A stretch of DNA of 64,000 bases from an uncultured bacterium (GCA_965369785.1 CBDUTA010000001.1:4779-68778), one strand, 5' to 3'. Positions 618 to 56,697 are shown, counted from the first letter of the stretch. Numbers and translations: made by a program. The notes: generated from the letters alone by a model not told the origin.

Positions 618-1532
618 ATGGCCAGAAAACATTTTCATGTGCTATGGGCGGTGGATGCGATCCAGGAGCATAAAGAGATTCAAATGAAGACAGCCCAGGT
701 GCTAAAGGCCCTCCTCAAGAACTTGGATGCGGAAGTGGAGCCTGTGACAGTTCTCAGCCCCGACCAAATCCTGGTACCGGCGGCTGCTTTCCGAAAGCAC
801 TCTGACGATCAGCGGCTGCAAGGGGAGAAGATCCTTGCAGGCTGGAGCCGGGAAGCGGGCTTTTCCCACACCCTGAAGCCCACCTTACTCGTGCAGCAAG
901 AGTTTTCGATAAGTCGTAGCACCGGATCCCTGCTGAGTTACGCCAAAGAGGTGGAGGCAAACCTTATCGCCCTGGGAACCCGCGCCAAGAAGGGGTTTAA
1001 GAGGGTGGTGATGGGCAGCTTTGCCGAAACCCTGGTTCTCCAGTCGGAGACACCCCTGTTCGTAGTAAACCCCGAAACCCGCCCCCTTACGGAGATCAGT
1101 GAGGTTTTGTTCCCCACAGATTTTAGCGATTCCTGCCGCGAGGCCTTTGACAGGCTCCTGCCCGTGGCAGCCGCCAAGGGTGCCAGAATCACCCTCTTCT
1201 ACAAACTGGAATACATCGTGCCCCAGACCCAGGATGTGATCGCCATGTACTCCCCATATCGGGAATACATGGAACAGGACGTAGAGCAGAAGCGGAAAAA
1301 AGCTGAAGAGTGGCAAGGCATTGCAGCGAAGGAAGGGGTTACAGTGGACATCGTGTTCAACAGGAAACCTGCTTATGTGGTTGACTCCCTGCTCGAAGCG
1401 GCCGAACAACTGAAAGACGGGATGATCGCCATGGCCTCCCAAAGAGGCCGGGGCGCGGTCTTGTTGGGGAGCATCACACGGGATCTGATCCGCCGGTCCC
1501 CGAACCCTGTGTGGGTCATCCACCCCAACTAG
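618..1532 (+). CDS. tandem-domain universal stress protein (UspA family)
   Basis: 304 aa with two USP-like halves (HVLWAVD... and VLFPTDFSD...GSITRDLIRRSPNPVWV). An AGGAGG Shine-Dalgarno sits 9 nt upstream of the ATG. Confidence 0.8.
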   Translation: MARKHFHVLWAVDAIQEHKEIQMKTAQVLKALLKNLDAEVEPVTVLSPDQILVPAAAFRKHSDDQRLQGEKILAGWSREAGFSHTLKPTLLVQQEFSISRSTGSLLSYAKEVEANLIALGTRAKKGFKRVVMGSFAETLVLQSETPLFVVNPETRPLTEISEVLFPTDFSDSCREAFDRLLPVAAAKGARITLFYKLEYIVPQTQDVIAMYSPYREYMEQDVEQKRKKAEEWQGIAAKEGVTVDIVFNRKPAYVVDSLLEAAEQLKDGMIAMASQRGRGAVLLGSITRDLIRRSPNPVWVIHPN

Positions 1533-20388: not shown

Positions 20389-20904
20389 TCACGGCGAGGG
20401 TTCGGTAACTGCCGGTAAGACTCGAAATGCGCTGTGACAAGCGCTGCAGGTGGCACCGATGCTCTCCAACGTTTCGGAAACCCCGGACAAGGACTGTTGT
20501 TCTGCCTGCCTGTGTAGTTCCTCCGCCTGATTCCCCAGCTTTTCTGCCAGGTCAACGAACACCTGCAGTTTCTCATCACTCAGCTCCACCTCTTCGAGCA
20601 CGTCGGGAATGTGGAGGGCTGCTTCAGCCATTGCCTGGGCAACAGGGGACATCTGGCCGATTTGACGTTGACGCTCAGCCTCCACGTCCATTTCCTGGGG
20701 AAGCTGATTCAGGGACAATCGCTCCAGCTCTGCCATGATTTGCCTGAGCCTTTCGCTGTGAACCGCGTGTAAAGCTGCCTTGTCCGTCCTCTCCAGGCGT
20801 CGCCTGTATTCTTCCATGGGTCTCTGCCGACACGAGGGTCCCACCAACAGCAAAAACAACGTCACTGCAAAAACAATTCGGAGAAAATGAGTCGTCTTAA
20901 GCAT
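20389..20904 (-). CDS. periplasmic class II cytochrome c (cytochrome c'-like four-helix bundle)
   Basis: A signal peptide and a single CSACH heme motif at the extreme C-terminus, as in cytochrome c'/c556. Confidence 0.6.
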   Translation of the reverse strand: MLKTTHFLRIVFAVTLFLLLVGPSCRQRPMEEYRRRLERTDKAALHAVHSERLRQIMAELERLSLNQLPQEMDVEAERQRQIGQMSPVAQAMAEAALHIPDVLEEVELSDEKLQVFVDLAEKLGNQAEELHRQAEQQSLSGVSETLESIGATCSACHSAFRVLPAVTEPSP

Positions 20905-27932: not shown

Positions 27933-27956
27933 CGTTCTTCCTCTCTGTGGACAGCT

Positions 27957-28125
27957 AGCCCGGATAATGCATAAGTTCTCTACTGCAGCGACGAAATCAT
28001 CCGCCCTGTCTGCGTTGCACTCGGTCGGCCTCCTCAACGTACTGCAGAGAGTACGTTTGCGGGGACCTCTGTCGCGCGCCTTGCAAGGTCGGCGTTTTCG
28101 TCGCTTCGTGACAAGAACCAATGCA
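27957..28125. repeat. inverted pair of the AGCCCGGA-TAAT-GCAT motif flanking the lon 5' leader
   Basis: GCCCGGATAATGCAT at about 27957 and ATGCATAATCCGGGC at about 28110 form a 15-bp inverted repeat about 140 bp apart. The same motif occurs at 36626 and 38060. Confidence 0.4.
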
Positions 28126-28235
28126 TAATCCGGGCTGGCCCCTCCCCACGCCGCGCTCAACCGAGCGGTTGTTGTGCGTCCTTCTTTTCGAAAGCGTTCC
28201 TGAAGAGAGTGTCGATCAGCAAGGCATCGTCGTCA

Positions 28236-30392: not shown

Positions 30393-30848
30393 CTACTTCC
30401 CTGCCGGTACAGTTACCGTCGTTCTTGGCTTGACCACCATCACATGGCAGGGGGCCTGACGAAGCAGGGCTTCGGCTGTGCTGCCCATGAACAGCCTTCC
30501 CAAGCCGGTTCGTCCATGAGTTCCCACAATGATCAGATCGGCGTCCTTTGCTCGCGCAAATTTGGCTATGGTCGCAGGCGGTGCTCCCTGGATTACCACT
30601 GGGCGAATCGTCATACCCTCTGGAGTGTTCTCCGGAACCAAGCTGTCCAGCTGGCTCTTCGCCTCCTTCTCTAGGTCAGGGATCGAAGGCGTTACCGAAC
30701 CCATGGGGTCCATCCCTACCGGGGGATTCAAGACGTGCAGAAAATGCACCACCGCCTCACTGTCCTGAGCTAGCGTGAAGCCCGTTTCCATGGCCAGGAG
30801 CGAAGCTTCTGAAAAGTCGATTGCGATAACGATCGTCCTATATCTCAT
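30393..30848 (-). CDS. universal stress protein (single domain)
   Basis: IVIAIDFSEAS...LIIVGTHGRTGLGRLFMGSTAE...VMVV. Confidence 0.8.
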   Translation of the reverse strand: MRYRTIVIAIDFSEASLLAMETGFTLAQDSEAVVHFLHVLNPPVGMDPMGSVTPSIPDLEKEAKSQLDSLVPENTPEGMTIRPVVIQGAPPATIAKFARAKDADLIIVGTHGRTGLGRLFMGSTAEALLRQAPCHVMVVKPRTTVTVPAGK

Positions 30849-35879: not shown

Positions 35880-36395
35880 GTGATGTCGCCGATGAACCTT
35901 CTCATTGTTTACTTTTCTTTCACATCAACGGTTCGCACACTGGCTCAAGCCGTGACATCCAAGTTGGAAATGAACGCTCAGGTTACCACCTGCACAATCG
36001 AACCACGGACCTCGCGCGGCTATTGGGGATGGCTCCCTCGCTCTTTCCTTCCCCACTGGCGCGTCCCCATCAAACCCACTACCACAGATTTAGAACCCTA
36101 TGATCTGGTTTGTCTGGGATTCCCGAAGTGGACGTTCGCCTGTCCTCCGGTGAACCAGTACATCAAAATGATGAAAGGCTGCCAGGGAAAGAAGATTGCC
36201 CTCTTCATGTGCAATAGGGGGTTTGACGAGAAGCGCTACCTGAACCATATGATCCGAAAGGTCTCCAAAAGGGGATCTCTGGTGGTAGCAACGCTTTCAG
36301 TGAAACAAGATGTGGTCCGAAAGGGGACCTATCAGGAGGCACTCGACTCGTTCTGTCGGCAGGCCAGGTCTGGTGACCGAATAGTTTTTCCCTGA
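35880..36395 (+). CDS. flavodoxin-like fold protein
   Basis: LLIVYFSFTSTVRTLAQAV is a flavodoxin-type N-terminal strand plus phosphate loop. 171 aa. Confidence 0.45.
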   Translation: MMSPMNLLIVYFSFTSTVRTLAQAVTSKLEMNAQVTTCTIEPRTSRGYWGWLPRSFLPHWRVPIKPTTTDLEPYDLVCLGFPKWTFACPPVNQYIKMMKGCQGKKIALFMCNRGFDEKRYLNHMIRKVSKRGSLVVATLSVKQDVVRKGTYQEALDSFCRQARSGDRIVFP

Positions 36396-36625: not shown

Positions 36626-36643
36626 GCATAATCCCGGCTAAGG
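36626..36643. repeat. copy of the CATAATCC(C/G)GGCT motif overlapping the HAO-like gene stop
   Basis: GCATAATCCCGGCTAAGG, compared with CATAATCCGGGCTAGCC at 38071 and CATAATCCGGGCTGGCC at 28110. Confidence 0.35.
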
Positions 36644-38038
36644 GGACTGCCCATAGCGCTCCCGATAGAACTCATCGATCTGTTCTCTTTCCTCTGGTGA
36701 CATGCCCTGCTTCCAAACGTGCTCTGGTCGTCCCAGGATCTCGTCGACGACTCTCAGCACTCTGGAATCACCCTGGGCCAGTTCCCGAGCCTGAGGGATG
36801 AGCTCGAAGTAGAAGCGATGGGCAACTTCAAAAAATCCGTGCCACTGGGTGTAATCGGGGCCCTGCATGGAAACACCCATCCGAGCCCGCCGGCCTTCAT
36901 GGTGCCAGAGGTGATAGAACGTCCACTCAATTTCGTCATCAAACGGGTCGGGCGTAATCTTTCCCCTCTGCCGAAGGACATCCATGATTTCTTGGGCAGG
37001 GCGGCCGAATTTGTCATTGTACATTTCCACCGTACTATCAAACTGGACATAAAAGGCATTCACGAAATCCGGAGCATGACACTGGAAACAGACATCCTTC
37101 ATGTCCTGTCGGCGCTCCTCCCAGTTTTCCAGCTTGTTGGAAATAACGGGACGGAGAGTCCAGGAAATCCGAGCCCCTACATCGTGGGTGACGGGCTGAT
37201 TGGGTGTGGCACTCATGTGGCAGGTGGCACAGGTGGGAGCTGCTGAGTAGTCCTCTCCCAACACCCAACTGTCGCTCTCCAGATTCATCTCGGCCAACCG
37301 GGTTCGATAGGCGATGCCATGCTTGCTTTCCTCATAAATCTCGATCTGGGGATGATCCGGCCCCATGTGACACTTCCCGCACACCTCAGGCTGGCGGGCC
37401 ATGGCCTTGGAGAAGACATGGCGCGAGTGACAGGCCCCACAAGAACCATTGGAACCGTCCAGATTCACCCGTCCAATTCCGGTATTGGGCCAGGTGAGAG
37501 GGTCAATGAGGGGCTTACCCTCGTCATTGCGTTGCGGGTTCCCCTCGTCGTCAACCAGGAACTGCACGGTTGAACCGTGGCACTGCCAACAGCCATTGGC
37601 GGCCGCCAGGGGACCCTCCGCCATCTCGCCCAGTACGTTGTCCAATGACCCGACGAATTGGGAGGCTTTGGCGTGGTGGCTGGCATCGAACTCCTCGACG
37701 ATTCGTTCGTGGCACTGGGCACAGTCCTTGGGCGTGACGATGGTGGCAATCATTTGTCCTTCGTGCAGGAAGGCATCCACATCGTTTTCCTCAGACCGGT
37801 GGCATTCATAGCAACCCACGCCCAGGACGGCATGGGCGCTATCGGCCCACTGGGCCCCCACAACCGGCGTTTTTTCCAGGTGGCAGTCGTAGCACTTGGC
37901 ACTCTCACCCGTGACCACGGGTTCAGGTCCAGACTGAAAGCGCTGCTTCCCTCCTTCCACCCAGGCCACGATGATGAGTGCGACCAGCAAAAGCAGACTT
38001 AAGCTGGCAACGATGATGCGCTTCATTTCCAAACTCAT
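36638..38038 (-). CDS. octaheme c-type cytochrome, hydroxylamine-oxidoreductase (HAO) family
   Basis: 8 CxxCH motifs (CYDCH, CYECH, CAQCH, CWQCH, CGACH, CGKCH, CATCH, CFQCH), a signal/anchor helix, and the TWPNTGIGRVNLDGSNGSCGACHSRH block typical of the HAO/ONR family. The start is at the first ATG (MSLEMKR), which has an AGGAGG Shine-Dalgarno. Confidence 0.8.
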   Translation of the reverse strand: MSLEMKRIIVASLSLLLLVALIIVAWVEGGKQRFQSGPEPVVTGESAKCYDCHLEKTPVVGAQWADSAHAVLGVGCYECHRSEENDVDAFLHEGQMIATIVTPKDCAQCHERIVEEFDASHHAKASQFVGSLDNVLGEMAEGPLAAANGCWQCHGSTVQFLVDDEGNPQRNDEGKPLIDPLTWPNTGIGRVNLDGSNGSCGACHSRHVFSKAMARQPEVCGKCHMGPDHPQIEIYEESKHGIAYRTRLAEMNLESDSWVLGEDYSAAPTCATCHMSATPNQPVTHDVGARISWTLRPVISNKLENWEERRQDMKDVCFQCHAPDFVNAFYVQFDSTVEMYNDKFGRPAQEIMDVLRQRGKITPDPFDDEIEWTFYHLWHHEGRRARMGVSMQGPDYTQWHGFFEVAHRFYFELIPQARELAQGDSRVLRVVDEILGRPEHVWKQGMSPEEREQIDEFYRERYGQSP

Positions 38039-38059
38039 GCCCAATACCTCCTATTTTTA

Positions 38060-38090
38060 GCCCGGACTATTCATAATCCGGGCTAGCCGG
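38060..38090. repeat. palindromic hairpin AGCCCGGActattcataaTCCGGGCT between cyt b and the HAO-like gene
   Basis: An 8-bp stem with a 10-nt loop, directly upstream of the HAO-like Shine-Dalgarno. It shares 14 nt with the motifs at 28110 and 36626. Confidence 0.4.
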
Positions 38091-39177
38091 GAGCCATGGC
38101 TTCCCAGAGGGTCAAGACGATCAAAAAGAATACAGCCGCAACTCCCACCCACACACTGATCTCACTTGCCGGATTGCGACGGCGAATCCTGGCGTCGATA
38201 AAAGGCCAGATGAGGGCCGTGAGGCCCATGAGTCCAATGGTGATCACGGCAACTTGCAGTCCGGTGAGCTGAAGCCAGCGGAAGGTCCAGTAAAAGTACC
38301 ACTCTGGTTTGATGTGAGAGGGGGTCTGAAGGGGATTGGCTTTCTCACCCAGCTCGGCCGGGAAGATGAGGGCCAGGCAAGTCAGCAAAATAGTCAGACT
38401 CAGGGCGAGGATCAGTTCAGTCAGAAAATGATCGGGATACAAGGGAAAAGTCTTCGATTCAGAATCGCTCTGTAAATCTGCTTTGAACTCGAAGGCAGTG
38501 ACCTCATGGAGTCGTACCAGCAAGATGTGACCGAAAATGAGCAGGGTGATGACGGTAGGCAGGATTCCAATGTGAAGGATAAAGAATCGAGTCAGCGTAT
38601 TGTCGCCGATGGTTTCTCCACCTCGTAACAATCGAGCCAACTGGTCTCCAATCAGGGGGACCGCTTCAGTCAAATTTCCGGCAACAGTAATTCCCCAGTA
38701 GCTGAGTTGCTCATAGAGGAGTGAATAGCCGGTGAATCCAAAAAATAGAGTCACCCCGACCAATCCGATCCCGATCATCCAATTGAGTTCCCGGGGCTTT
38801 CGGTAGGCACCGGTAAAGAAGACCCGCATCATATGCAGGATGACCGCCACAATCATCAGATTGCTGGACCACTTATGGATACTGCGTACAAACCAGCCGT
38901 AGGGCACCATCGTGCCGATTCTCTGAACACTTTCATAGGCCTCATTTGGGGCGGGCACATAGTAAAGGGTCAGAAGAATCCCAGTCACAACCTGAACGAT
39001 AAAAAGGTAGCCAGCCGTCCCTCCCAGGCACCACCACCAACTCTTCAGGTGGTGAGGCACCGGTTCGCTGGTAAAGTGGCGTAAAGAATCCAGATCTACG
39101 GGGATTCGTTCCTGCACCCATTCCAGGCGTCCTGTTGATGACGAGGATGAGGATTGAGAAGGCAGGGAACGACTCAT
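38083..39177 (-). CDS. cytochrome b of a Rieske/cytochrome b (bc1/b6f-type) complex
   Basis: The heme-ligand His pairs in helices B and D (HKWSSNLMIVAVILHMMRVFFTGAYRKPRELNWMIG ... FFILHIGILP...HILLVRLHE) and the PEWYFYW quinol-site motif. Confidence 0.85.
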   Translation of the reverse strand: MSRSLPSQSSSSSSTGRLEWVQERIPVDLDSLRHFTSEPVPHHLKSWWWCLGGTAGYLFIVQVVTGILLTLYYVPAPNEAYESVQRIGTMVPYGWFVRSIHKWSSNLMIVAVILHMMRVFFTGAYRKPRELNWMIGIGLVGVTLFFGFTGYSLLYEQLSYWGITVAGNLTEAVPLIGDQLARLLRGGETIGDNTLTRFFILHIGILPTVITLLIFGHILLVRLHEVTAFEFKADLQSDSESKTFPLYPDHFLTELILALSLTILLTCLALIFPAELGEKANPLQTPSHIKPEWYFYWTFRWLQLTGLQVAVITIGLMGLTALIWPFIDARIRRRNPASEISVWVGVAAVFFLIVLTLWEAMAPG

Positions 39178-39653
39178 AAACTCACAATCTCCTCCACTTC
39201 CAGAAAGAGATTGTTTCCGATCCTGCGAATGGGGAACTTTGTCAGGTTCTTTCCTTCAGCCGCCGGTGGGCCCTCTGTGGCTACTCCGTTGTTGTCAAAA
39301 ACCCCTTGATGACAGGGACAAAAGAATCGCTGGTTGCGAATTTCCCAGTGCACCTTGCAACCCAGGTGCGGACAGGTGTTGGAGAGGGCAACCACCTCTC
39401 CGCCTATGTTCGTGACCAAAGCCTGGTTCCCGTCAGGCAACGTGTAGGTCTTACTTTCTCCCGTCAGAAGGTCAGCCGCTGGGGCCAGAAAGATGGTGCG
39501 CAGACGACGCTGACCGCGCAGGGGATACACGTATCGGAGTGCAAACAGAAGGCCTGTCCCGTAGCTGAGAACTAACCCACCCCACATGAACAGGTTAATC
39601 AGTGCCTGACGGCGACTCTGTTTCCTGGTTGATCCTGGTTTCGTCGTTTCCAC
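39174..39653 (-). CDS. Rieske [2Fe-2S] iron-sulfur protein
   Basis: Box I CPHLGCKV and box II CPCHQGVF, an N-terminal TM anchor, and a stop that overlaps the cyt b start (ATGA). Confidence 0.8.
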   Translation of the reverse strand: METTKPGSTRKQSRRQALINLFMWGGLVLSYGTGLLFALRYVYPLRGQRRLRTIFLAPAADLLTGESKTYTLPDGNQALVTNIGGEVVALSNTCPHLGCKVHWEIRNQRFFCPCHQGVFDNNGVATEGPPAAEGKNLTKFPIRRIGNNLFLEVEEIVSL

Positions 39654-39792
39654 GTCTTCCCCCTCACAGAGTTGATTCGGGAAAGATTTTACCTGCCAGC
39701 CCTGATCATTAATCAGTTCTCGTCACGGAGGGGATCTTCATCGAATGGATGAAGGAGGCACTAGCCGAGGATCGGGTGGTCTTCCCCGCATT

Positions 39793-40689
39793 TTATTCGT
39801 TGTCGAGTTTGAAGGTGAGAACCGGGCAAGAGGCCGTTCGAACGAGTCGCTCCGTGGTGCTTCCCAATAACATCCGGTCCAGACCGGAGAGGCCGTGGGT
39901 ACCCATGACAATGAGGTCCACCTGGTTTGCACGGGCAAACTTACTGATTTCTGCGTGAGCTTTTCCGTCTCCGATCTCGACGTGAACATCGAGGTCTCGG
40001 AGACCCTCCTCTCCCAGAGTCGATCTCAGCGACTCTTTGGCTTCTTCAGCGATTTGAGGCAGCTCCCGGGCCATCGACTCCCTCCATTTGAGGTAAAAAG
40101 CAGGGTGCACTTCCTGTTCAACGACGTAAAGGACTTGAAGATGAGCGCTATACCGGGCTGCCATAGCCCTTGCTTTACGCGCCGCCTTCTTCGAGTGCTC
40201 CGAAAAATCGAAAGCCACCAGAATTTCTTGGTAATCAGGATTATTTCGATACTCCTTCCGATCCTGGGCCACAGTAAGGACGGGACAGGAAGCATGTCGC
40301 ACCACCCGTTCAGCCACACTGCCTACAAAGAACTGCGCCAAGGCCGAATGCCCATGAGTGCCCATCACCGTCAGGTCGATCCCCTTCTCTTCAATGAAGT
40401 CGAGTATACCCCTGGCTGGAGCGACTTCCCGGACGACTTCAGTCGTGACTTTCTGAGAGGCTTCCGTCGCCTGGGAAATTTCACCCAGGCTCTTTTCGAT
40501 ATACCCCCTGAAATTTCCCTCATCTAACTGTTGATACTCCGGTGCACTGGGATCATCACTGTACGGAGTAGCCACATGGAGTATGTTGATGTCCGCTTCG
40601 TATTTCTGGGCGATCTTCAGAGCATGCGGTAACGCAGTGTTGGCGGCTCGAGAGAAGTCAGTAGGAAAAAGGACCTTTCTTATTCCCAT
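39793..40689 (-). CDS. tandem-domain universal stress protein
   Basis: Two USP halves (VLFPTDFSRAA... and ILVAFDFSEHS...LIVMGTHGLSGLDRMLLGSTTERLV). Confidence 0.8.
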   Translation of the reverse strand: MGIRKVLFPTDFSRAANTALPHALKIAQKYEADINILHVATPYSDDPSAPEYQQLDEGNFRGYIEKSLGEISQATEASQKVTTEVVREVAPARGILDFIEEKGIDLTVMGTHGHSALAQFFVGSVAERVVRHASCPVLTVAQDRKEYRNNPDYQEILVAFDFSEHSKKAARKARAMAARYSAHLQVLYVVEQEVHPAFYLKWRESMARELPQIAEEAKESLRSTLGEEGLRDLDVHVEIGDGKAHAEISKFARANQVDLIVMGTHGLSGLDRMLLGSTTERLVRTASCPVLTFKLDNE

Positions 40690-40861
40690 TATTCAGGGCC
40701 TTTCCAATATCAGTCACCCTGCCTGCAGGAGGCCGGCTACAAGGACAATGCTCTGGCTATCATAGCACCTTCCTGACGGTATTACTGTTATGTAGGCACC
40801 CATCCGAATAGGGGGACAGCCTGTTCCGAAATCAGGACGAAACGGCCCATCGATTGGGGCA

Positions 40862-40910
40862 TATACCCGAACCGAATGAGTCGGCTGCCCCTCATTCGAC
40901 AGCGAATCCC
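40862..40910. promoter_or_regulatory. two GAAT...ATTC palindromes in the divergent USP / CbcL-like promoter region
   Basis: GAATGAG-N10-CTCATTC and GAATCC-cct-GGATTC lie within 50 bp of each other, between divergently transcribed genes. Confidence 0.3.
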
Positions 40911-40976
40911 CTGGATTCCCCGGTGGCCTCCAACCGCACCTGTTGGCACACCGTGTGCTCGGTATAAGATAGTGTT

Positions 40977-42989
40977 ATGCGGAGGACTTCTCCAACTTAT
41001 CCCAGATGGAGAAAAGGAGAGCTCATCTCAGTATTGACTGGATTGTTTATATTCCGTCTGCTTCTTGTTTCGCGGGCATTTGCCCTAGGTCTGGGCGTAC
41101 TCAGCACTGCTTCGGCCATGTCCCTCGCAGCACCCCAGGAAATGCCTTGTGACGGGTGTCATGAAGTGTCAGCAAGTTCCCTTCATCGTGACTTTGGATG
41201 CATCAGTTGCCACTCGAATGTCCAGGATTTTCCCCATCAAGATTCTGTACTTGAAGAACTCTCCGGCAGCGAACTCTGTTCTCAATGCCATGACTCTACT
41301 GCCAGTCTGCTCAAAGAGAGCGTTCATGGGGAAATACTGGATTGTCAGACTTGCCACGGCGAAGCACACTCCCTCTTGCCGGTCACCGACCTGGCTTCTC
41401 CGGTATCCCCCTTAAGACAGATTCAATTGTGCAGCCAATGCCATGATACTCCGGAAGTAGTAGACGACTACTTAGGCAGTGTTCACGGTCGGGCGTTGGT
41501 CGTTTCAGGCCTCATCATCGCTCCGTCATGCACCGATTGTCACGGCAGTCATGCCATCTTCCCGCCTTCTGATACTCGAGCCACCGTTTCCCACAACCAG
41601 GCACCCCAAACATGCGGAACCTGTCACGCCTATATACTCGATGTCTGGGTCAAGGAAAGCGCTCACGGTCAAGCTTGGCAACAGAGTGAGGAGGGACCCG
41701 GATGCCCCACTTGTCACGGTTCCCATCAAGTGATGGAACCGCGCAACGCCGACCAACGACTGCAGTTTCCGGAAAGCTGCGGAGGCTGTCACGAAGATCG
41801 CTACACGACCTATCGCGACAGTTTTCATGGCCAGGTAACAGATCTGGGATTCCAGACTGCAGCCATCTGCTCGGATTGCCATACGCCCCATGCCAACCTT
41901 CCCGCCGATAGTCCACAATCGTCAGTCCACCCGACCCATCTCAAGGACACTTGTGGGAAATGCCACGCAGAGGTAAGCCCAGGGTTCCTAACCTTCGACC
42001 CTCACCTTGACCCCTCTGACCCCACGGGGAATCGAGAAGTCTACTTCGTGTGGCTTTTCATGACCGGTCTTTTGATCTCTGTGTTCGGGTTTTTTGGACT
42101 CCATGATCTGCTCTGGTTCCAGCGCTCACTGGTAGCCTATTTCAAAGGAGAGTTCGCCAGTGTCAGAAAGACAAATGGACCTTACATTAAGCGTTTTACT
42201 TCCGTTGATGTATGGGTTCATGTTGCTATTGTGGTGAGTTTCTTGATCCTTGCCATGACCGGTTTGCCCTTGAAATTCCATTTTGCCGATTGGGCAAAGA
42301 ATCTCACTGGTGCAATGGGTGGGGTTGGTTTGACTCGTTCCTTACACCGCTTTGCCGCTGTGGTGACCTTTGGCTATGCTTTTTTTCATTTGGGCCACCT
42401 TGTTCAGAAGATCGTTTTCAGAAAAGACTTTGGCCTGCTGTGGGGATGGCGCTCCATGGTGCCCAGGCCAAAGGATTTCGTGGACGTCTGGCACAATCTC
42501 CGCTACTTTCTCTATCTTGGACCGCGTCCCCGTTTGGATCGTTGGACTTATTGGGAAAAGTTTGATTACTTTGCGGTTTTCTGGGGGATCATCATCATCG
42601 GAGTCTCCGGATTAGCTCTTTCGTTTCCCAGCTTTTTCACCCGCTTCTTCCCGGGATGGTTTCTGAACGCGGCTTTCCTTATTCACAGTGATGAAGCGCT
42701 CCTGGCAGTGGGCTTTATCTTCATGTTTCACTTCTTCCACACTCATCTTCGTCCTGAGAGCTTCCCATTGGATCCCGTCATCTTCACCGGCCGGGTACCT
42801 CTCGAAAGGTTCAAAGAGGAAAGGCCCGTCGAATACCAGCGTTTGGTGCAGACCGGTCGCTTGGAAACTCTCATCGTCGGTCCTCCTTCCCGTAAGCAGA
42901 TTCGAATGGCTGGCATTTTCGGTTTTGCTGCCATGGCGGTGGGCATAGGATTGATGCTGGCCATTCTTTGGAGCTTCTTTGCTTATTAG
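40977..42989 (+). CDS. CbcL-like inner-membrane cytochrome: 11-heme c-type domain fused to a HydC/FdnI-type diheme cytochrome b
   Basis: 11 CxxCH motifs in residues about 55-330, then 4-5 TM helices with conserved His (GLHDLLWF, WVHVAIVV, SLHRFAAV, MFHFFHTHL), as in the formate dehydrogenase/hydrogenase gamma subunit. Confidence 0.7.
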   Translation: MRRTSPTYPRWRKGELISVLTGLFIFRLLLVSRAFALGLGVLSTASAMSLAAPQEMPCDGCHEVSASSLHRDFGCISCHSNVQDFPHQDSVLEELSGSELCSQCHDSTASLLKESVHGEILDCQTCHGEAHSLLPVTDLASPVSPLRQIQLCSQCHDTPEVVDDYLGSVHGRALVVSGLIIAPSCTDCHGSHAIFPPSDTRATVSHNQAPQTCGTCHAYILDVWVKESAHGQAWQQSEEGPGCPTCHGSHQVMEPRNADQRLQFPESCGGCHEDRYTTYRDSFHGQVTDLGFQTAAICSDCHTPHANLPADSPQSSVHPTHLKDTCGKCHAEVSPGFLTFDPHLDPSDPTGNREVYFVWLFMTGLLISVFGFFGLHDLLWFQRSLVAYFKGEFASVRKTNGPYIKRFTSVDVWVHVAIVVSFLILAMTGLPLKFHFADWAKNLTGAMGGVGLTRSLHRFAAVVTFGYAFFHLGHLVQKIVFRKDFGLLWGWRSMVPRPKDFVDVWHNLRYFLYLGPRPRLDRWTYWEKFDYFAVFWGIIIIGVSGLALSFPSFFTRFFPGWFLNAAFLIHSDEALLAVGFIFMFHFFHTHLRPESFPLDPVIFTGRVPLERFKEERPVEYQRLVQTGRLETLIVGPPSRKQIRMAGIFGFAAMAVGIGLMLAILWSFFAY

Positions 42990-43055
42990 ATCGGGGCTAT
43001 AGGAGTCAGCCATCTTCCGGTTCGCCATTTCAAGGAGCACCACCACGCCTGGTTG

Positions 43056-44765
43056 TCATGGGTGGCACATTGCACAAAGCTCGCGGTTCAAGGAAACAGG
43101 TTGTCCAGCCGCAAGTTGATGACAGTCGGCACAGGCATTTCCCATCCCCAGGTGCAGTGAGTGAGAGAATTCTCCTCGAAAAGACTGCACCACACCCTCC
43201 ATCATTCCAGAATGGCATTGCTGGCAATCCAGCTCAGTCTCCTGGTGGTGACAATTTGCGCAGCCTTCGGCTTCAAAGCGAACCACTTCTCCCACAGGTT
43301 TTTCTTCATGGGGCCGATGGCAAGCCTGGCATTGGAGTTCCTGCTCCACGGCGTGTATTGAATGGCTGAACTCTCGACCGAATTGAGGTCCGCTCTGTCC
43401 TTCGATGCCCTGGTGACACTGGATACAACTCGATTCGTAGGGGACTTCCGGCCAGGGTATGGTGAGTTCAGAGCGACCGATTTGCCCTCGTGCCTGATTG
43501 AGAAATTCATGGGCCCGAGACAGTAAGGCAAAGGAATACCTGACGTTGTGCACACCTTTGCCTTCCTCCACCAGAGTAAGGTTGTGGTACGCATCCGCCA
43601 GTGCTTGTGGTTCAGCACCTGAGAAAAGAGAATCGGTCTCTTGCAGCTGTCGTTTCAAAAGCCCTGTGCGCTGGCTTACCCCTTCTTTCCAGCGCAAGTA
43701 AGTCGCACGATAACGGGCGCCGTGGCAGGACATGCAGGAGACCTCTGTTGCCCGTGCCGTCTCTTTCTCCTGCCCGGGTATCTGAAAATGACAACCCTCG
43801 CAAGACACTCCGGCAGTAAACATGGAGGCAGGCATGGGAGGCACTCCCCGTCCCCCTATGCCGGCATAGAGGTCACGCTGAGGGGAATGTCCGGCCCGGT
43901 GGCAGCTTTCACAGTCTGTTTGAGCTGCTTCCAGGTTCGGCGGTTGGCCATGCTGGATCTCGAGGTGGCAGTCCATGCAATTCACCTTATGTTCTGTCAC
44001 GTGCATCTGGTGCATGAGAGCCGTATTCTCATACTGAGCCAGTCGTGGGGGATCGTTGTGACAGGTAAAGCAACGCTCTTGAGGAACGTTTCCGCCTGAT
44101 CCGGTTAACTCGTGAGAATGGCACCAGCTACAATCCATGTCGAAGCGTTTCACATCACCGTGGTCAAACGTCATCATTTCCTTCTGGACCACCATTTCAG
44201 GGATAGCGTGGCACAGGGTGCAGCGGCTAGTGCTTTCTCCGGGTCCTTCTCCTTTGAAATGGCACAGGATACAGGTTGAAGTCGTCACCGTAATGTGCAG
44301 ACCCTGGACGATCTGGCTGTGACAGGAAGTGCAGCGTAGTTTTATGCCGTGACGCAGTTCCGTGAGATGGGGCCGATGATCAAACACAACATCAGCGAAC
44401 AGTTCTCGTCCAGAAAGAAGTCGTCTCTGGTGGCAGCGAAGACAGGCCGCGTCGTCGATTTCAGTCCATGGGTTAGTTCCGTAGGTGCCGGTGAAATAGG
44501 AGGCAACCATGGAAAGCGCTTCCCATTTCTTGCGGATTTCGTTGGTCACTCCAGGGGGGATGTGGCAATCCACGCAAGGCACATCGCTGTGACTCGAGTT
44601 TTGCCACGAGTCAAAATAGGGCTTCATCACGTGGCAGGTTCCACAGAACTGGGGCTGGCTGGAGGCCTCCGCGCCCAGAACAATGGCAATCACCCCTAGA
44701 CCTAGAAGGAGGCTTGAGGAGTAGATCACCCAACGAATCCTGGCAGACGGGATGAATCGTTTCAT
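43056..44765 (-). CDS. membrane-anchored 18-heme c-type cytochrome with an N-terminal NapC/NirT/NrfH-type quinol-dehydrogenase module
   Basis: A TM helix, then FCGTCHVMKPYFDSWQNSSHSDVPCVDCHI (the NrfH/NapC signature), and 18 CxxCH in total (the last is CAMCHP at the C-terminus). The start is at the Met whose ATG overlaps the upstream stop (ATGA). Confidence 0.75.
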   Translation of the reverse strand: MKRFIPSARIRWVIYSSSLLLGLGVIAIVLGAEASSQPQFCGTCHVMKPYFDSWQNSSHSDVPCVDCHIPPGVTNEIRKKWEALSMVASYFTGTYGTNPWTEIDDAACLRCHQRRLLSGRELFADVVFDHRPHLTELRHGIKLRCTSCHSQIVQGLHITVTTSTCILCHFKGEGPGESTSRCTLCHAIPEMVVQKEMMTFDHGDVKRFDMDCSWCHSHELTGSGGNVPQERCFTCHNDPPRLAQYENTALMHQMHVTEHKVNCMDCHLEIQHGQPPNLEAAQTDCESCHRAGHSPQRDLYAGIGGRGVPPMPASMFTAGVSCEGCHFQIPGQEKETARATEVSCMSCHGARYRATYLRWKEGVSQRTGLLKRQLQETDSLFSGAEPQALADAYHNLTLVEEGKGVHNVRYSFALLSRAHEFLNQARGQIGRSELTIPWPEVPYESSCIQCHQGIEGQSGPQFGREFSHSIHAVEQELQCQACHRPHEEKPVGEVVRFEAEGCANCHHQETELDCQQCHSGMMEGVVQSFRGEFSHSLHLGMGNACADCHQLAAGQPVSLNRELCAMCHP

Positions 44766-45931
44766 GTTCTTTCTCTTAAAACCTTTTGCCGAAAACGCAA
44801 GAGAATCCAGATGGTTAACACGACGTAAAACCAAAAAATCACCAGACCCAGACGACGAATCCTTCGTTCTCCCAACTTCCCCTGGATCTCTCCCTGGACC
44901 TCCTCTCCCAAAGAGCGAGCGGTCCGGGTGAAATTTTCCATCGCTTCGAGCGACACGGTGTGCACGGCAGGTTCGGCTTCCAACAGGTACGTTCGGGCCT
45001 CTTGCAAACGAGCCTGGTAGTCTTCAACGTAAATCGGAATTTCCTCCGCTTCCGCGATCAGTTGGCGAGCTTGATCTATCTCCTCTTGGGCACGCTGGAA
45101 CAGAACCTCCATTTTTTCTCCCAGGGTGACCTGCGACGAATCCTGTCCATGACAACCGGCACACAACAGCGCCAAATCTTCCCGATCCGCCACCTGTACA
45201 GAGTGGTTTCCGTGACATGAGATACACTCGGGCAATCCAGCCTCGAGCATTCCGGCCAGATGCGGACCTGCCTGGAAGGCTGAACGGGCGGCCGTGTGAC
45301 AGCTCCCGCAGACCTTGTCCACGTCTCCCACACCAGGCGGTGCCGCCCCGTGGATCCCGTGGCAGCGGGCACATTCCGGGGCGTTGTCGTTCCCCCTCTC
45401 GAGTAGCTCTTCTGCATGTATGCTTTGCAGGTAGTCGTGGTATGGGGCTGTGTCTTTCCCGTAGTGGGCCATCAGTTCCGTATCTCCATGGCAGCGCCCG
45501 CAGGTATCCGGTATGTTCTCAACAAACACCCGACTTTCCGGGTTTTCTGGAGAAAGGATATTGTGTGTGCCGTGACAATCCGTGCACACCGCAATCCGGG
45601 AATCGCCATCGGCCAACCGCATTCCATGCTGGCTAATTTGGTAAAGCGCATACTGGTCGGTGGGCAGATTGTAGGGACGCATGCGCTGAGGATCCGAATG
45701 ACACTCAGCACAGAATCGAGGAACATCCCGTCTAGAGATGGTGCCTCGAAAACTCCCCCTGTGGGCCGCCTCTGTGGACACCGTGTTGGGGTTGCCGCCG
45801 TGACAATCTGTACAGCTGGTAGACTCTTGAGCATGAATGGAGGATTGGTAAAGAGCACGCACGTCGGGGTGGCACAAACCGCATTGTTCGCTCTGCATGG
45901 GAACCACAAGAATCAGCAGTAGAAGGATCAC
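44762..45931 (-). CDS. nonaheme c-type cytochrome with a C-terminal membrane anchor
   Basis: 9 CxxCH motifs, a short N-terminal signal, a C-terminal hydrophobic helix (LGLVIFWFYVVLTIWILL), and a GTG start 4 nt after the cyt b stop. Confidence 0.75.
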   Translation of the reverse strand: MILLLLILVVPMQSEQCGLCHPDVRALYQSSIHAQESTSCTDCHGGNPNTVSTEAAHRGSFRGTISRRDVPRFCAECHSDPQRMRPYNLPTDQYALYQISQHGMRLADGDSRIAVCTDCHGTHNILSPENPESRVFVENIPDTCGRCHGDTELMAHYGKDTAPYHDYLQSIHAEELLERGNDNAPECARCHGIHGAAPPGVGDVDKVCGSCHTAARSAFQAGPHLAGMLEAGLPECISCHGNHSVQVADREDLALLCAGCHGQDSSQVTLGEKMEVLFQRAQEEIDQARQLIAEAEEIPIYVEDYQARLQEARTYLLEAEPAVHTVSLEAMENFTRTARSLGEEVQGEIQGKLGERRIRRLGLVIFWFYVVLTIWILLRFRQKVLRERT

Positions 45932-45935
45932 CCTG

Positions 45936-47072
45936 TCAGACCCTCACATCCAGGATCAGGCCATAATAAGAAAAAAAGAGCCACAGCAAGAAGACTGCGA
46001 AGCCGAAGCCGAGTGCGATTTTCCTTTTTCGCTGAGGTGCCCCGGACCGAAAATCGAGGGCAGGCAAGAAAATAAACACCAGCAGCACAATCATCAGGAG
46101 ACTACTCCTGACCCAAAGAGGAATCCACGTCGGAAAGAGTTCGATGAAACCGTAGGGTGCCAGCAAATACCAAGGCATTCGGGTTCCCACGGCCGTTTGG
46201 TAGGGATTGACAGGCTCCCCAAAGGGCGTGGCCCAGAGAACTGATAACGTTACTAAAACCCCAAAAATCGCCAAGGTGAGGATCAAGATACTATAGAGAT
46301 GGGCCAGGTAAGCGCCCGATCCTCCCTTCTGTTCCTCTCCCGGGATCTCACTGAGACCTACACGCCGGATCCCCGAAAAGTTGATATAGAGAACACACCA
46401 AAAGACTAAAGGCAGAATCGCAACGTGCAAGAAGTAGAAGCGAGTCAGCATGACGTTCTCCCCCGGCAACCCACCCACCAAGAAGGCGGAAAGCGCGCCG
46501 ATCACCGGTATGGAGAAAAGCACCTCAAGAGCTCGTATGCTGGACCAGTAGGATTGGTTGGTCGACGCTAACAGACGGCCGGAGAATTCAAGATGAGTTG
46601 CCACCAGAAAGAGTACGGCTCCGGCGACCCAAATCAATTCTCTGGGAGACCGGTAGAGTCCACGAAAGTAGAAACGGATCAAACGAATAATGAGGAGCAT
46701 CAACAAGAGTTGCGCACCCCAATTGTGCATTTGATGTACAAACCAGCCAAAGGGAATATCTCTGACAATAGTGAGGACACTTGGATAGGCTTCTTGGGCC
46801 GTCGGACGATAGTAGAAGGCCAGAAGCCCTCCTGTGATCAACTCGATGACAAACAGAATAAGAGTCAGCAGGCCCAGCACTCGAGGCCACCGTGAATAAG
46901 AAGGTAGGGGCTTTGCCAAAGCCTCTTTCAGGGCCTCCTTGAGCGGCTTGCTAGTATCTACTTCTGTATAGAAAAGGCCAGAGATAGTGAGCAGGGAGAA
47001 GATCTCTGTCAGATTGATACGCTGCTCCAACCACCTGACAACCTGGCTTGTCCTGCTTGGGCGTTGTGCCAT
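45936..47072 (-). CDS. cytochrome b of a second Rieske/cytochrome b complex
   Basis: WFVHQMHNWGAQLLLMLLIIRLIRFYFRGLY and FYFLHVAILP His-containing helices, and a PWYLL motif. The start is at MAQRPS, which has an AGGAAGG Shine-Dalgarno in the gap after the Rieske stop. Confidence 0.8.
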   Translation of the reverse strand: MAQRPSRTSQVVRWLEQRINLTEIFSLLTISGLFYTEVDTSKPLKEALKEALAKPLPSYSRWPRVLGLLTLILFVIELITGGLLAFYYRPTAQEAYPSVLTIVRDIPFGWFVHQMHNWGAQLLLMLLIIRLIRFYFRGLYRSPRELIWVAGAVLFLVATHLEFSGRLLASTNQSYWSSIRALEVLFSIPVIGALSAFLVGGLPGENVMLTRFYFLHVAILPLVFWCVLYINFSGIRRVGLSEIPGEEQKGGSGAYLAHLYSILILTLAIFGVLVTLSVLWATPFGEPVNPYQTAVGTRMPWYLLAPYGFIELFPTWIPLWVRSSLLMIVLLVFIFLPALDFRSGAPQRKRKIALGFGFAVFLLWLFFSYYGLILDVRV

Positions 47073-47097
47073 CACACCTACCCTTCCTGGAACTTTC

Positions 47098-47547
47098 TCA
47101 CATGTGAACCAAGATCTCCCCACGCCGGATCTCAGTTGGATAGCTGGTCAGTGGCTTGGTGGGCAAACCCGACATCACCGAACCCGTGGAGCTGAACACT
47201 CCATTGTGGCAGGGGCAAACCAGGTTTCGATTCTGGCTGTTCCAGTTCAACACGCAGCGAAAGTGAGTACACAAGGCGGACACTGCGACAAGTTCATCAT
47301 TGCTCAACCGGACAAGATAGAGAGGAGCACTCCCATGACGGATCAGGCGAGCTTCCCCCGCCTTTAGAGATTCTGCGTCTCCGGCCTGAACAATATTCTG
47401 CCCTGCCCAACGAGTTGAAGGAGGAACCTTCAAAAAACTGGCTACTACACCCACCAGACCCACACCCCACAAAGACAAGAAAAAGAGGGTCAGCGACTGG
47501 AAAAGAGTTCTACGCTCTGTATCCATGGCTTCGACCTTTTCTGTCAT
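47098..47547 (-). CDS. Rieske [2Fe-2S] iron-sulfur protein (second copy)
   Basis: CTHFRC ... CPCHNGVF boxes and an N-terminal TM/Tat-like region (RRTLFQSLTLFFLSLWGV). Confidence 0.8.
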   Translation of the reverse strand: MTEKVEAMDTERRTLFQSLTLFFLSLWGVGLVGVVASFLKVPPSTRWAGQNIVQAGDAESLKAGEARLIRHGSAPLYLVRLSNDELVAVSALCTHFRCVLNWNSQNRNLVCPCHNGVFSSTGSVMSGLPTKPLTSYPTEIRRGEILVHM

Positions 47548-47734: not shown

Positions 47735-48097
47735 TCATTCCTCAATCTTAGAAAGCCTGCGGGTATATTCAGCTACCGCCTTGAGATCCTCATCGCTGAT
47801 CTTGCCCTCATACTTCGGCATCTTACCCAGGCCTTCACTCAAGGTCTTCACCAATTCGGCAACGGAAGTTCCCTGCTTCCACGACCCGGCAGTCAGGTCG
47901 GGAGTCTTCATCATCTTTCCTGCTTTTGTGTCTGCCTTGCCATCATCTCCATGACACATGAGACACTTGGAATCGTAGACTTTCTTTCCGGGCGAGTCTT
48001 CTTCGGCAAAAACCAGTGAGAGGGCCGCCAGTGTAAAAAAACCGATCACCAGGATGAAACTTGAGTAAAGGGCCTTTCTCTTTGTTGGGTCAAACAT
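47735..48097 (-). CDS. monoheme class I c-type cytochrome (c552/c6-like)
   Basis: A signal peptide, a single CLMCH and a distal Met (GKMPKY). The start is at the ATG after an AAGGAGGGA Shine-Dalgarno. Confidence 0.65.
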   Translation of the reverse strand: MFDPTKRKALYSSFILVIGFFTLAALSLVFAEEDSPGKKVYDSKCLMCHGDDGKADTKAGKMMKTPDLTAGSWKQGTSVAELVKTLSEGLGKMPKYEGKISDEDLKAVAEYTRRLSKIEE

Positions 48098-48146
48098 ACA
48101 TCCCTCCTTTTTCAATCTGTGGTGTCCGTTGTAAGGCCGTCATCCC

Positions 48147-48668
48147 TTACACCGGAAGACCCACCTGGGCCAGGAGTTCGTCGGCCAGGTTACCGTAGTG
48201 TTGGTGGCACTGCCCCGAGAGCTCCACTTCGTCGAACTTGACGCGGAGACCTTCCAATTCGGCTTTCGAAAGCACACCGCGTCCCATCGGAAACAGAACG
48301 TTGTCCTCCTTCTGAATATGGCTGCGCAAAAGCTCTACATAGTTGAGGGATTCGCGGCGCAGGCCGGCCAAATCACCCCCTTTGATCAGCTCTCGCATAG
48401 ACTGGACATGGCCACGACCGATCTCGTGTTCCTCGCACATACACCCGATCGGGCCGGCCTCGCGAGGAATTCCCTTTTCTTCCAGGACGGGAAAGAGGCG
48501 CTCCTCTTCCTTTCCATGGTGACACTTGTCGGCAAAATTGGCAATGAAATCCACCGCCTGCTCGTAAAACTCAAGGGGCAGCTCTTGTTCGGCAGCAGCG
48601 CTGAGAGCTGTGAGGACCTTTTCAATGATGCGGTGCTCATCCATGAGTTCCTGGATGGGGTCTAGCAT
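48147..48668 (-). CDS. hemerythrin-like (HHE cation-binding) domain protein
   Basis: The H-HxxxE / H-xxxE patterns (MDEHRIIEKVL, CHHGKEEERLFP, CEEHEIGRGHV, LRSHIQKEDNVLFP). Confidence 0.7.
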   Translation of the reverse strand: MLDPIQELMDEHRIIEKVLTALSAAAEQELPLEFYEQAVDFIANFADKCHHGKEEERLFPVLEEKGIPREAGPIGCMCEEHEIGRGHVQSMRELIKGGDLAGLRRESLNYVELLRSHIQKEDNVLFPMGRGVLSKAELEGLRVKFDEVELSGQCHQHYGNLADELLAQVGLPV

Positions 48669-49505: not shown

Positions 49506-49590
49506 GTGCGGTTCCTTCAGATGGGTCTCGACACACGATTCGCATCCGGGATTATAATCACAGGAGGGGGCCAAATTGGGAGGATCATCC

Positions 49591-50904: not shown

Positions 50905-50915
50905 TGAGGTGACGC

Positions 50916-52412: not shown

Positions 52413-52430
52413 TCGAACTGGACAAAAGCT

Positions 52431-56217: not shown

Positions 56218-56697
56218 ATGAAAATGGCTCGATATTTGGTGGTACCCGTGATTGCGGCGATTTTGATTGGAGGGGTGTACTTCCTGTTTCTTGACCAACC
56301 CATTGTTTGTGACCACTGTGGGCGCCCCCTGCACCAGGAAACACTGTACAGGATCCACCTGCGAGACGGTGAAGTGAGGCACTCCTGTTGTCCTCGCTGC
56401 GGTTTGAATTTCCAGCAAGGTCGGGACGACGTCGTGGCCGTGGAGGTGGCTGATTTCAGGACAAGCAAGCTCCTGGACGCCACTCAAGCGATTTATGTCG
56501 AGGACAGTTCGGTCAATATGTGCTATCTGGACAGCCCGGTGCACAGACACATCGAAGGAATCGAATCCACCCTGGCCTGGGATCGCTGTATGCCGGGTCT
56601 ACTGGCCTTTGAATCGCGTGAAGATGCAGAAGAATTCAGGCGTGAAAAAGGCGGTTCTATAAGGACTTACAATCAATTACTTAAGGAAATACTCTAG
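56218..56697 (+). CDS. membrane-anchored TRASH-domain (C-x2-C...C-C-x2-C) metal-binding protein with a NosL-like C-terminal region
   Basis: An N-terminal TM, then CDHCGRPLHQETLYRIHLRDGEVRHSCCPRCGLNF (the TRASH pattern). The C-terminal ...AFESREDAEEFRREKGG resembles NosL. A GGAGGTGA Shine-Dalgarno lies 4 nt after the preceding stop. Confidence 0.45.
   Translation: MKMARYLVVPVIAAILIGGVYFLFLDQPIVCDHCGRPLHQETLYRIHLRDGEVRHSCCPRCGLNFQQGRDDVVAVEVADFRTSKLLDATQAIYVEDSSVNMCYLDSPVHRHIEGIESTLAWDRCMPGLLAFESREDAEEFRREKGGSIRTYNQLLKEIL

Follow-up and report, generated by a model that had tools for sequence, protein, structure and literature searches.

What does an octaheme cytochrome of the HAO family do when its gene stands directly behind those for a Rieske protein and a cytochrome b? 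The question is raised by a 64,000-nucleotide stretch of DNA from an uncultured bacterium (GCA_965369785.1 CBDUTA010000001.1:4779-68778; hereafter the window), the minus strand of which carries a gene for a Rieske [2Fe-2S] subunit (39174..39653), one for a cytochrome b (38083..39177) and one for an HAO/IhOCC-type octaheme cytochrome c (36638..38038). A reading made from the sequence alone had proposed that these genes encode a quinol:nitrogen-oxide oxidoreductase. This is the function best supported by the present analysis, on the basis of the nap and amtB gene contexts of relatives, the likeness of the octaheme to the Ignicoccus hospitalis protein IhOCC and the physiology of Nitrospira. We put at about two in three the probability that their joint product is a menaquinol:nitrite oxidoreductase bound to the membrane, with ammonium as its most likely end product.

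The gene order given by the sequence-only reading, Rieske, cytochrome b, octaheme, is borne out, with all three open reading frames (ORFs) found at their minus-strand coordinates. They encode a Rieske subunit of 159 amino acids (PF00355, E = 8e-13), a cytochrome b of 364 amino acids in which a b6-like half is fused to a subunit-IV-like half (PF00033 and PF00032), and an octaheme of 466 amino acids counted from its ATG (PF13447). The Rieske stop and the cytochrome b start overlap as ATGA, the coupling already noted by eye, and a 44-nucleotide spacer, its sequence read directly, separates cytochrome b from the octaheme (38039..38082, minus strand). An AGGAGG Shine–Dalgarno sequence lies 8 nucleotides before the ATG at 38038; because of this spacing, and because homologues start at the same Met, this originally proposed start is better than the alternative TTG at 38044. 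Residue numbers for the active site and other features of the octaheme are nonetheless those of the 468-amino-acid ORF that begins at this TTG. The next gene downstream, flavodoxin-like (35880..36395), is convergent, and the octaheme is therefore the terminal gene of the unit, as had been claimed.

Between the cytochrome b stop and the octaheme Shine–Dalgarno sequence lies a hairpin, CCCGGA-ttatgaatag-TCCGGG (6 bp; 38059-38080, minus strand). The tract on its 3' side is A-rich and not a T-run, so that the hairpin is not a terminator; its role may lie in the processing or stability of the mRNA, or in the control of translation.

The two upstream subunits have the features of a quinol-oxidizing pair, and their position directly before the octaheme gene confirms the genetic coupling to such a module. 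The Rieske protein has one N-terminal transmembrane helix, a Tat-like SRRQ motif (39606-39617) and two cluster-binding boxes, CPHLGC (39357-39374) and CPCHQGVF (39297-39320), all on the minus strand. In the second box, Gly and Phe occupy the positions that Ser and Tyr hold in high-potential Rieske proteins. On the mutant data summarized in PMC12954380, this replacement of the Ser/Tyr hydrogen-bond pair predicts a low-potential, menaquinol-type centre. The closest solved relatives are b6f- or green-sulfur-type domains (8hn2, E = 1e-13; 5cxm, E = 8e-12), and the Kuenenia Rieske proteins 9rk3 and 9rk4 match at only about 1e-6.

Cytochrome b, with seven predicted transmembrane helices, is closest to cytochrome b6 (7r0w, E = 9e-57). 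Its motifs place the heme ligands at His101/His115 (38875-38877 and 38833-38835) and His202/His217 (38572-38574 and 38527-38529), the latter pair separated by 14 residues, which is the b6 spacing (helix D). The Cys that binds heme cn in b6 (YCLGG) has its counterpart in Cys50 (39028-39030), within WWCLGG, and residues 291-294 form the PEWY motif of the Qo site (38296-38307), all again on the minus strand. The operon contains no gene for cytochrome c1 or f, its third gene being the octaheme; without such a monoheme subunit, the module is a variant within the Rieske/cytochrome b superfamily.

To which octaheme family does the third subunit belong? It carries exactly eight CxxCH motifs, starting at residues 51, 78, 108, 152, 202, 222, 272 and 319, and no CxxCK motif, and it matches the HAO-type multiheme family PF13447 with 98.2 bits against a cut-off of 21.9. 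The top match in a sequence search of the PDB is IhOCC (4qo5, E = 6e-42; E = 1.5e-58 when the family profile is used). Further matches are Nitrosomonas europaea HAO (NeHAO; 1fgj, 1e-21), Brocadia and Kuenenia HOX, HDH and the reductive HAOr Kustc0458 (2e-17), the entries matched below 4qo5 and 1fgj being 6t5e, 6hif, 6h5l and 4n4j. In the same search the TvNiR-type ONR 8rv0 (E = 0.68) and NrfA were insignificant, and OTR and MccA gave zero matches. Membership of OTR, MccA or TvNiR-type ONR was accordingly rejected for lack of significant PDB matches and of CxxCK, and the HAO-family assignment made from the sequence alone stands. An AlphaFold2 (AF2) model of the heme-free monomer (pLDDT 81, pTM 0.79) leads to the same relatives, with 4qo5 first (1e-13) and 6t5e second in Foldseek; only the ranking and E-values were used, as the TM-scores were poor (0.34) because the heme-free monomer is distorted. 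No record of the exact protein was present in the contig index searched, and no curated NCBIfam model exists for the family.

Relatives of the octaheme are common. In a scan of one genome per species, at least 592 species encode one, and we compared in detail the 80 best-matching loci (L001-L080), in which the octaheme is 46-69% identical. These come from Acidobacteriota, Myxococcota, Planctomycetota, Bacteroidota, Ignavibacteriota, Chlorobiota, Calditrichaceae, Cloacimonadota, Binatia, Gemmatimonadota, Zixibacteria, Anaerolineales, Thermodesulfobacteriota, Nitrospira and cultured Gammaproteobacteria, among others. Of these, 41 have a cytochrome b gene directly upstream of the octaheme on the same strand, with a median gap of about 39 nucleotides; these linked loci represent more than 15 phyla. 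A Rieske gene precedes cytochrome b in 38 of them, the remaining 3 ending at a contig edge. The same three genes, together with an upstream gene for a universal stress protein (Usp), are found in a metagenome contig that is 94% identical (L081), and the same gene order occurs in the metagenome loci L082 and L083 and in contig P0064. Recurring in L081 and in 41 of the 80 loci, the arrangement is more than chance. The linked state changes at least eight times on a neighbour-joining tree; the module has thus come together or been lost on several occasions.

For the relatives, the gene neighbourhoods speak for a role in nitrogen metabolism. A NapA homologue is encoded immediately downstream of the octaheme in 16 of the 41 linked loci, with NapB as well in 12 of the 16, against none in the flanks of the 39 unlinked loci. 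In L082, where the octaheme is 72% identical, the order is napA-napB-Rieske-cyt b-octaheme, and NapA scores above the NCBIfam equivalog cut-off; the neighbour of the module in L083 is an enzyme of the type-II DMSO-reductase family, accompanied by a NarJ-like chaperone. The gene amtB lies nearby in 6 linked loci, including all 4 from Nitrospira, one of which (L077) reads amtB-Rieske-cytb-octaheme-amtB-...-glnE, as in the published ONR neighbourhood. Seven unlinked gammaproteobacterial loci have a tetraheme NrfH/NapC-like gene directly downstream of the octaheme, which marks a quinol-dependent enzyme. Among Nitrospirales with ONR, petBC mostly adjoins and the others have a NapC gene (PMC12342949). 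Taken together, these contexts are what one would expect of a periplasmic nitrite reductase that draws on the quinol pool through one or the other of two interchangeable dehydrogenase modules; where amtB is nearby, they suggest that the product is ammonium.

A physical link to the Rieske/cytochrome b pair is suggested by the N terminus of the octaheme. Residues 5-31 (LEMKRIIVASLSLLLLVALIIVAWVEG; 37952..38032, minus strand) form a hydrophobic helix, modelled by AF2 with a pLDDT of about 80-95, that is predicted to be a membrane anchor tethering the octaheme to the Rieske/b module. Close relatives keep this sequence as MxLxxKRxxVAxLSxLFL..VAWVEGGKQR. The tblastn matches begin within the first ten query residues for 30 of the 41 linked loci, against none of the 38 unlinked ones that could be scored; anchor and Rieske/b partner therefore go together.

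The putative active site is consistent with nitrite as a substrate. By homology with HAO and IhOCC, the fourth CxxCH motif (C152-WQ-C-H156; 37577..37591, minus strand) would bind the catalytic, five-coordinate heme 4. It is separated from the heme 5 motif by 50 residues, as in IhOCC, compared with 10 in NeHAO. After the heme-6 motif, Asp230-His231 in CGKCHMGPDHPQ (37352..37357, minus strand) aligns in HMMER with NeHAO Asp267-His268 in CATCHSGVDHNN, and the pair is present without variation in 80 of 80 relatives. At the position of the distal Tyr334 of NeHAO, the octaheme has Arg298, in RISWTLRP (37151..37153, minus strand), a residue that would suit a pocket for an anion such as nitrite. Like Asp230 and His231, neither Arg298 nor the heme-4 motif varies among the 80 relatives.

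The direction of catalysis is a further question. In oxidative HAOs the Tyr that cross-links to heme is strictly kept, and its presence or absence has been taken as a code for catalytic direction (PMC8042395, PMC9250108). The sequence-only reading held that this residue could not be judged by eye; alignment to HAOs points to the reductive and not the oxidative type, as no conserved Tyr is found at the site, yet the octaheme in the window does have a Tyr at one candidate position, Tyr398. The reference residues were taken from PDB sequences, as Tyr467 of NeHAO (GGWTYTEGW, 4fas) and the Tyr of Kustc1061 (QTYGNG); the NeHAO sequence used is 100% identical to 4fas_A over residues 360-546, and other segments of it agree with the PDB alignments. 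When NeHAO and a Kustc1061 fragment were aligned to the family HMM with hmmalign, the C-terminal 140 residues stayed unaligned, so that a simple profile alignment could not settle the matter.

Two hhalign mappings, both of low confidence, identify different candidate sites and conflict, the C-terminal helical region being too diverged for confident alignment. With a profile of NeHAO and Kustc1061, the loop MQGPDYTQWH (residues 393-402; 36839..36868, minus strand) is set against NPGGWTYTEGW, and its Tyr398 (36851-36853) falls within one residue of Tyr467; HMMER pairs Tyr398 with the Trp of the IhOCC motif GQDWTTF. With a global alignment to NeHAO alone, Tyr467 maps to Trp444 (36713..36715, minus strand), PEHVWKQGMSPEER being set against WTYTEGWGPMNR of NeHAO. 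Across the query and 79 genome relatives, column 398 is Tyr in 63, Phe in 16 and Trp in 1. It changes at least 11 times on the neighbour-joining tree, with Tyr/Phe variation even within Nitrospira, and residues 395-401 have an AF2 pLDDT below 50. Column 444 is Trp in 80 of 80 sequences. Neither mapping thus yields a conserved Tyr, and together with the replacement of Tyr334 by Arg298 this suggests that the octaheme family is of the non-cross-linked, reductive type.

How new is such a module? The claim that the architecture is described essentially only for anammox bacteria does not hold: besides its presence in half of the loci compared here, it has been published for Nitrospira (PMC6606698, PMC5767232, PMC12342949) and for Caldithrix (PMC5317091). 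N. moscoviensis and N. japonica encode an ONR with two upstream, co-expressed Rieske/cytochrome b genes (PMC6606698, PMC5767232, PMC12342949). All three genes show high and similar expression on nitrite as the sole nitrogen source, and in N. japonica expression of ONR is reported to cease once ammonium is supplied (PMC6606698). The Nitrospira loci in our set (L066, L077-L079) share gene order and strand with the window; their octahemes are 52-53% identical over residues 33-460 and resemble ours in the Asp-His and Arg motifs of the pocket and in a hydrophobic anchor at the N terminus. The function proposed for them, quinol-dependent reduction of nitrite to ammonium, is also the one favoured here. 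The differences are that the Nitrospira module lies among amtB/glnE-type nitrogen-assimilation genes, whereas ours stands beside Usp and multiheme respiratory genes, and that the cytochromes b are only about 40% identical. Furthermore, the label ONR is misleading, as the Nitrospira protein is of the HAO/IhOCC type and not of the TvNiR/Thioalkalivibrio type (8rv0).

Caldithrix abyssi has a nap-Rieske/cyt b-epsilonHao cluster (Cabys_2564-2556), in which the genes for a Rieske protein, a cytochrome b and an HAO-type octaheme are adjacent, with no c1 gene, the octaheme being reported to have no cross-link Tyr, and the Rieske/b pair was proposed as a quinol-oxidizing donor to the nitrite reductase (PMC5317091). 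Orthology with C. abyssi is suggested by way of a Calditrichaceae metagenome-assembled genome (L022), which has the module with napA downstream and an octaheme of 53% identity; the Caldithrix cluster contains nap genes, whereas the window has none. The three-gene module is thus already described, in Nitrospira and Caldithrix, and biochemically uncharacterized, and the window holds another instance of it.

Anammox bacteria offer a more distant parallel. In Kuste4569-4574, a b6f-like Rieske/b complex is tied genetically and physically to the HAO-type Kuste4574, which is thought to reduce nitrite (PMC12954380, PMC12485887). That system comprises six genes, with split b6 and subunit IV (SUIV), an NAD(P) oxidoreductase and an extra hexa-/octaheme cytochrome c (PMC12954380), against three genes here and a fused b6/SUIV; it has been proposed to bifurcate electrons to NAD(P)H and to yield nitric oxide (NO) as product (PMC12954380, PMC12485887). 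Its Rieske centre is of high potential (+303 mV) and has the Ser/Tyr pair (PMC12954380), in contrast to Gly/Phe here. Kuste4574 is reported as a near homologue of Kustc0458, from which our octaheme is distant by comparison with IhOCC (E = 2e-17 versus 6e-42). Membership in the six-gene anammox complex was considered and rejected, the operon having neither a FAD/NAD(P) protein nor an extra multiheme cytochrome c.

IhOCC itself is the best match in sequence and fold, yet it is archaeal and only about 24% identical overall. Both proteins have a long insertion between hemes 4 and 5 with the motif P-N-x-G-[IV]-G-R-V-N-x-D-G-S (WPNTGIGRVNLDGS here, YPNHGVGRVNPDGS in IhOCC) and an aromatic residue in a GxD[YW]T loop. 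IhOCC is listed as a nitrite reductase without P460 (PMC9250108), and the title of Parey et al. 2016 (cited in PMC8840924) calls it membrane-associated, as is predicted for our octaheme. Its C terminus lies about 18 residues past a point after which our octaheme runs 61 residues more, and a Rieske/b partner, which the octaheme here has, was not found reported for it. The oxidative HAO and HDH enzymes (1fgj/4fas; HOX, 4n4j; HDH, 6hif) share the fold family, the eight hemes and the distal Asp-His pair, and the gaps between hemes 5 and 8 are similar (20/50/47 residues here, 20/51/50 in oxidative HAO). Our octaheme differs from them by a heme 4-5 segment about 40 residues longer, a predicted membrane anchor, no conserved cross-link Tyr, Arg in place of Tyr334, and the absence of c554/cM552 partners.

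In the mechanism that we propose, the Rieske protein and the b6-like cytochrome b would oxidize menaquinol at the PEWY-type Qo site, and the low-potential Rieske cluster would pass one electron per quinol to the heme chain of the octaheme, which, tethered by its own N-terminal helix, would stand in for cytochrome c1 or f. Electrons would run along this chain to heme 4, where nitrite would be reduced in the Asp230/His231/Arg298 pocket, most likely to ammonium. The second electron would return through the b hemes, possibly including heme cn, in the manner of a Q cycle. Nitrite reduction by this path would be electrogenic and build proton-motive force, a gain that the NrfH route does not offer.

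Several points weigh against this proposal. Genes of the nap, nar, nir, nrf, amt and gln types are absent from the 64-kb window; the neighbours are other multiheme respiratory genes and stress genes, and the substrate in this organism is therefore not fixed by context. Co-transcription of the three genes is something we infer; a scan for promoters and terminators performed no better on the window than on shuffled sequence and is therefore uninformative about the operon. Nor does the host lineage help: relatives of the FtsH protein, which is encoded with Lon protease on the minus strand (23558-28160), are at most 70% identical where they carry a taxon name and come from mixed phyla (Thermodesulfobacteriota, Chloroflexota, Phycisphaerae), with one further match at 91%; the lineage is therefore one without a close sequenced representative, and the FtsH comparison leaves it unplaced. 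Because this octaheme has Tyr398, a P460-type cross-link is conceivable, if most improbable. Finally, we know of no purified Rieske/b–octaheme complex of this kind outside anammox bacteria.

One alternative concerns the product. With the same architecture, the octaheme could be a one-electron, NO-forming nitrite reductase like HAOr (Kustc0458) or Kuste4574, serving denitrification or signalling. The only purified bacterial HAO without the Tyr cross-link does convert nitrite to NO (PMC8042395), the same role has been proposed for Kuste4574 in the anammox Rieske/b complex (PMC12485887, PMC12954380), and the window contains minus-strand genes for a cytochrome c'-like protein (20389-20904) and a hemerythrin-domain protein (48147-48668), both often linked to NO. 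We nevertheless regard NO as an unlikely product, since the octaheme is much nearer to IhOCC than to Kustc0458, since its Nitrospira orthologues are flanked by amtB and tied to nitrogen assimilation, which needs ammonium (PMC6606698), and since no nor or nos genes lie nearby, the sole trace being a NosL-like fragment below the Pfam stretch threshold. A different doubt concerns nitrite itself. The octaheme might serve mainly as an electron-output subunit that replaces c1 or f, passing electrons from the Rieske/b module to other periplasmic acceptors such as NapAB or multiheme cytochromes that serve metal or extracellular electron transfer, or might detoxify hydroxylamine, NO or sulfite, so that nitrite would not be its dedicated substrate. 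The 16 loci with nap genes directly after the octaheme can be read this way, the Caldithrix study proposes that the Rieske/b module also feeds Nap (PMC5317091), and the window has 11-, 9- and 18-heme proteins with a second Rieske/b module at 40977..47547, as well as three Usp genes that suggest a stress-response setting. A pure wire, however, would have no need of the invariant heme-4 motif and Asp230, His231 and Arg298, and in relatives without Rieske/b the pocket is still there and the partner is an NrfH-like donor, as in true nitrite reductases; such a role is therefore improbable in our judgement.

Far less probable still is that the enzyme runs in the opposite direction, with Tyr398 cross-linked to heme 4 in the adjacent subunit to give P460, and hydroxylamine, hydrazine or NO being oxidized with electrons entering the Rieske/b module. 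Such a reading can appeal to the Tyr found here and in 79% of relatives, in a loop that one profile alignment places within a residue of NeHAO Tyr467, and to the monomer model, in which confidence is low in two segments, this one and the Asp-His loop, both probably part of the interface or the active site. It has to contend with Phe in 16 relatives and Trp in 1, arising through at least 11 independent changes, some of them within Nitrospira, when strictly oxidative HAOs conserve the Tyr (PMC8042395, PMC9250108). IhOCC has Trp at this candidate site and no P460 (PMC9250108), the alternative alignment puts the invariant Trp444 there, and Arg takes the place of HAO Tyr334. Genes for haoB, cycA, cycB, amo and hydrazine synthase were not found in the window, and the transfer of electrons from the Rieske centre back to quinone would be energetically uphill. 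Equally improbable is a cross-link at Tyr398 in the 79% or so of family members that have this Tyr, facultative within one orthologous family and tuning or reversing catalysis between the oxidation of hydroxylamine or NO and the reduction of nitrite; it would place a bc-type complex wired to an oxidative HAO beyond nitrifiers and anammox bacteria.

If reduction of nitrite through a Q cycle by this menaquinol:nitrite oxidoreductase is true, nitrite ammonification would conserve energy, unlike the NrfH route, and estimates of the energy yield of dissimilatory nitrate reduction to ammonium (DNRA) in soils and sediments would shift. The module is widespread, with an octaheme relative in those 592 or more species and linkage in half of the best loci, often within a nap operon. 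A global survey of nitrate ammonifiers counts only nrfA and the TvNiR-type onr, whereas ihOCC and HAO enter it solely as distant homologues with which false positives are tested (PMC10716430); the octaheme family has probably been missed as a DNRA marker in surveys. The breadth of the module, its absence from curated families and surveys, the energetics of a possible Q cycle and the mostly-Tyr aromatic residue in the candidate cross-link loop are where its remaining interest lies.

The surroundings of the operon are rich in related genes. The tandem-domain Usp gene (39793..40689, minus strand) lies 139 nucleotides ahead of the Rieske gene, with which it may be co-transcribed; the order Usp-Rieske-cyt b-octaheme recurs in L081 and in a Binatia locus (L060). 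Some 3.4 kb upstream of the first module (39653 to 43056) lies a second Rieske/cytochrome b module, on the minus strand at 43056-47547. It consists of a second Rieske protein (47547..47098), a second cytochrome b with about eight transmembrane helices (47123..45936), a 9-heme cytochrome with a C-terminal transmembrane helix (45931..44762) and an 18-heme cytochrome with an NrfH/NapC-like N-terminal anchor (44834..43056), so that two multiheme-coupled Rieske/b complexes are encoded within 11 kb. Divergent from the Usp/Rieske unit, the plus strand encodes a protein of 670 amino acids (40977-42989) with 11 CxxCH motifs and, towards its C terminus, about five transmembrane helices; it matched no curated family above cut-off and is reminiscent of quinol-oxidizing Cbc-type proteins, as a fusion of a multiheme c and a membrane domain.

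Two further Usp genes lie at 618..1532 and 30393..30848, and a monoheme cytochrome c gene (47735-48115, minus strand) lies, like those for the hemerythrin-domain and cytochrome c'-like proteins, close to the respiratory genes. A pair of Usp and hemerythrin genes (1721-3036 in L082) also flanks the napAB-Rieske-cytb-octaheme operon of L082, and this pairing may be a recurrent regulatory or NO/O2-sensing accompaniment. On the plus strand, a CusCBA-type heavy-metal RND efflux operon (49576-55535) encodes an outer-membrane factor, a membrane-fusion protein with heavy-metal-binding domains and an AcrB-family pump, and is followed by the gene for the small NosL-like fragment protein (56218..56697).

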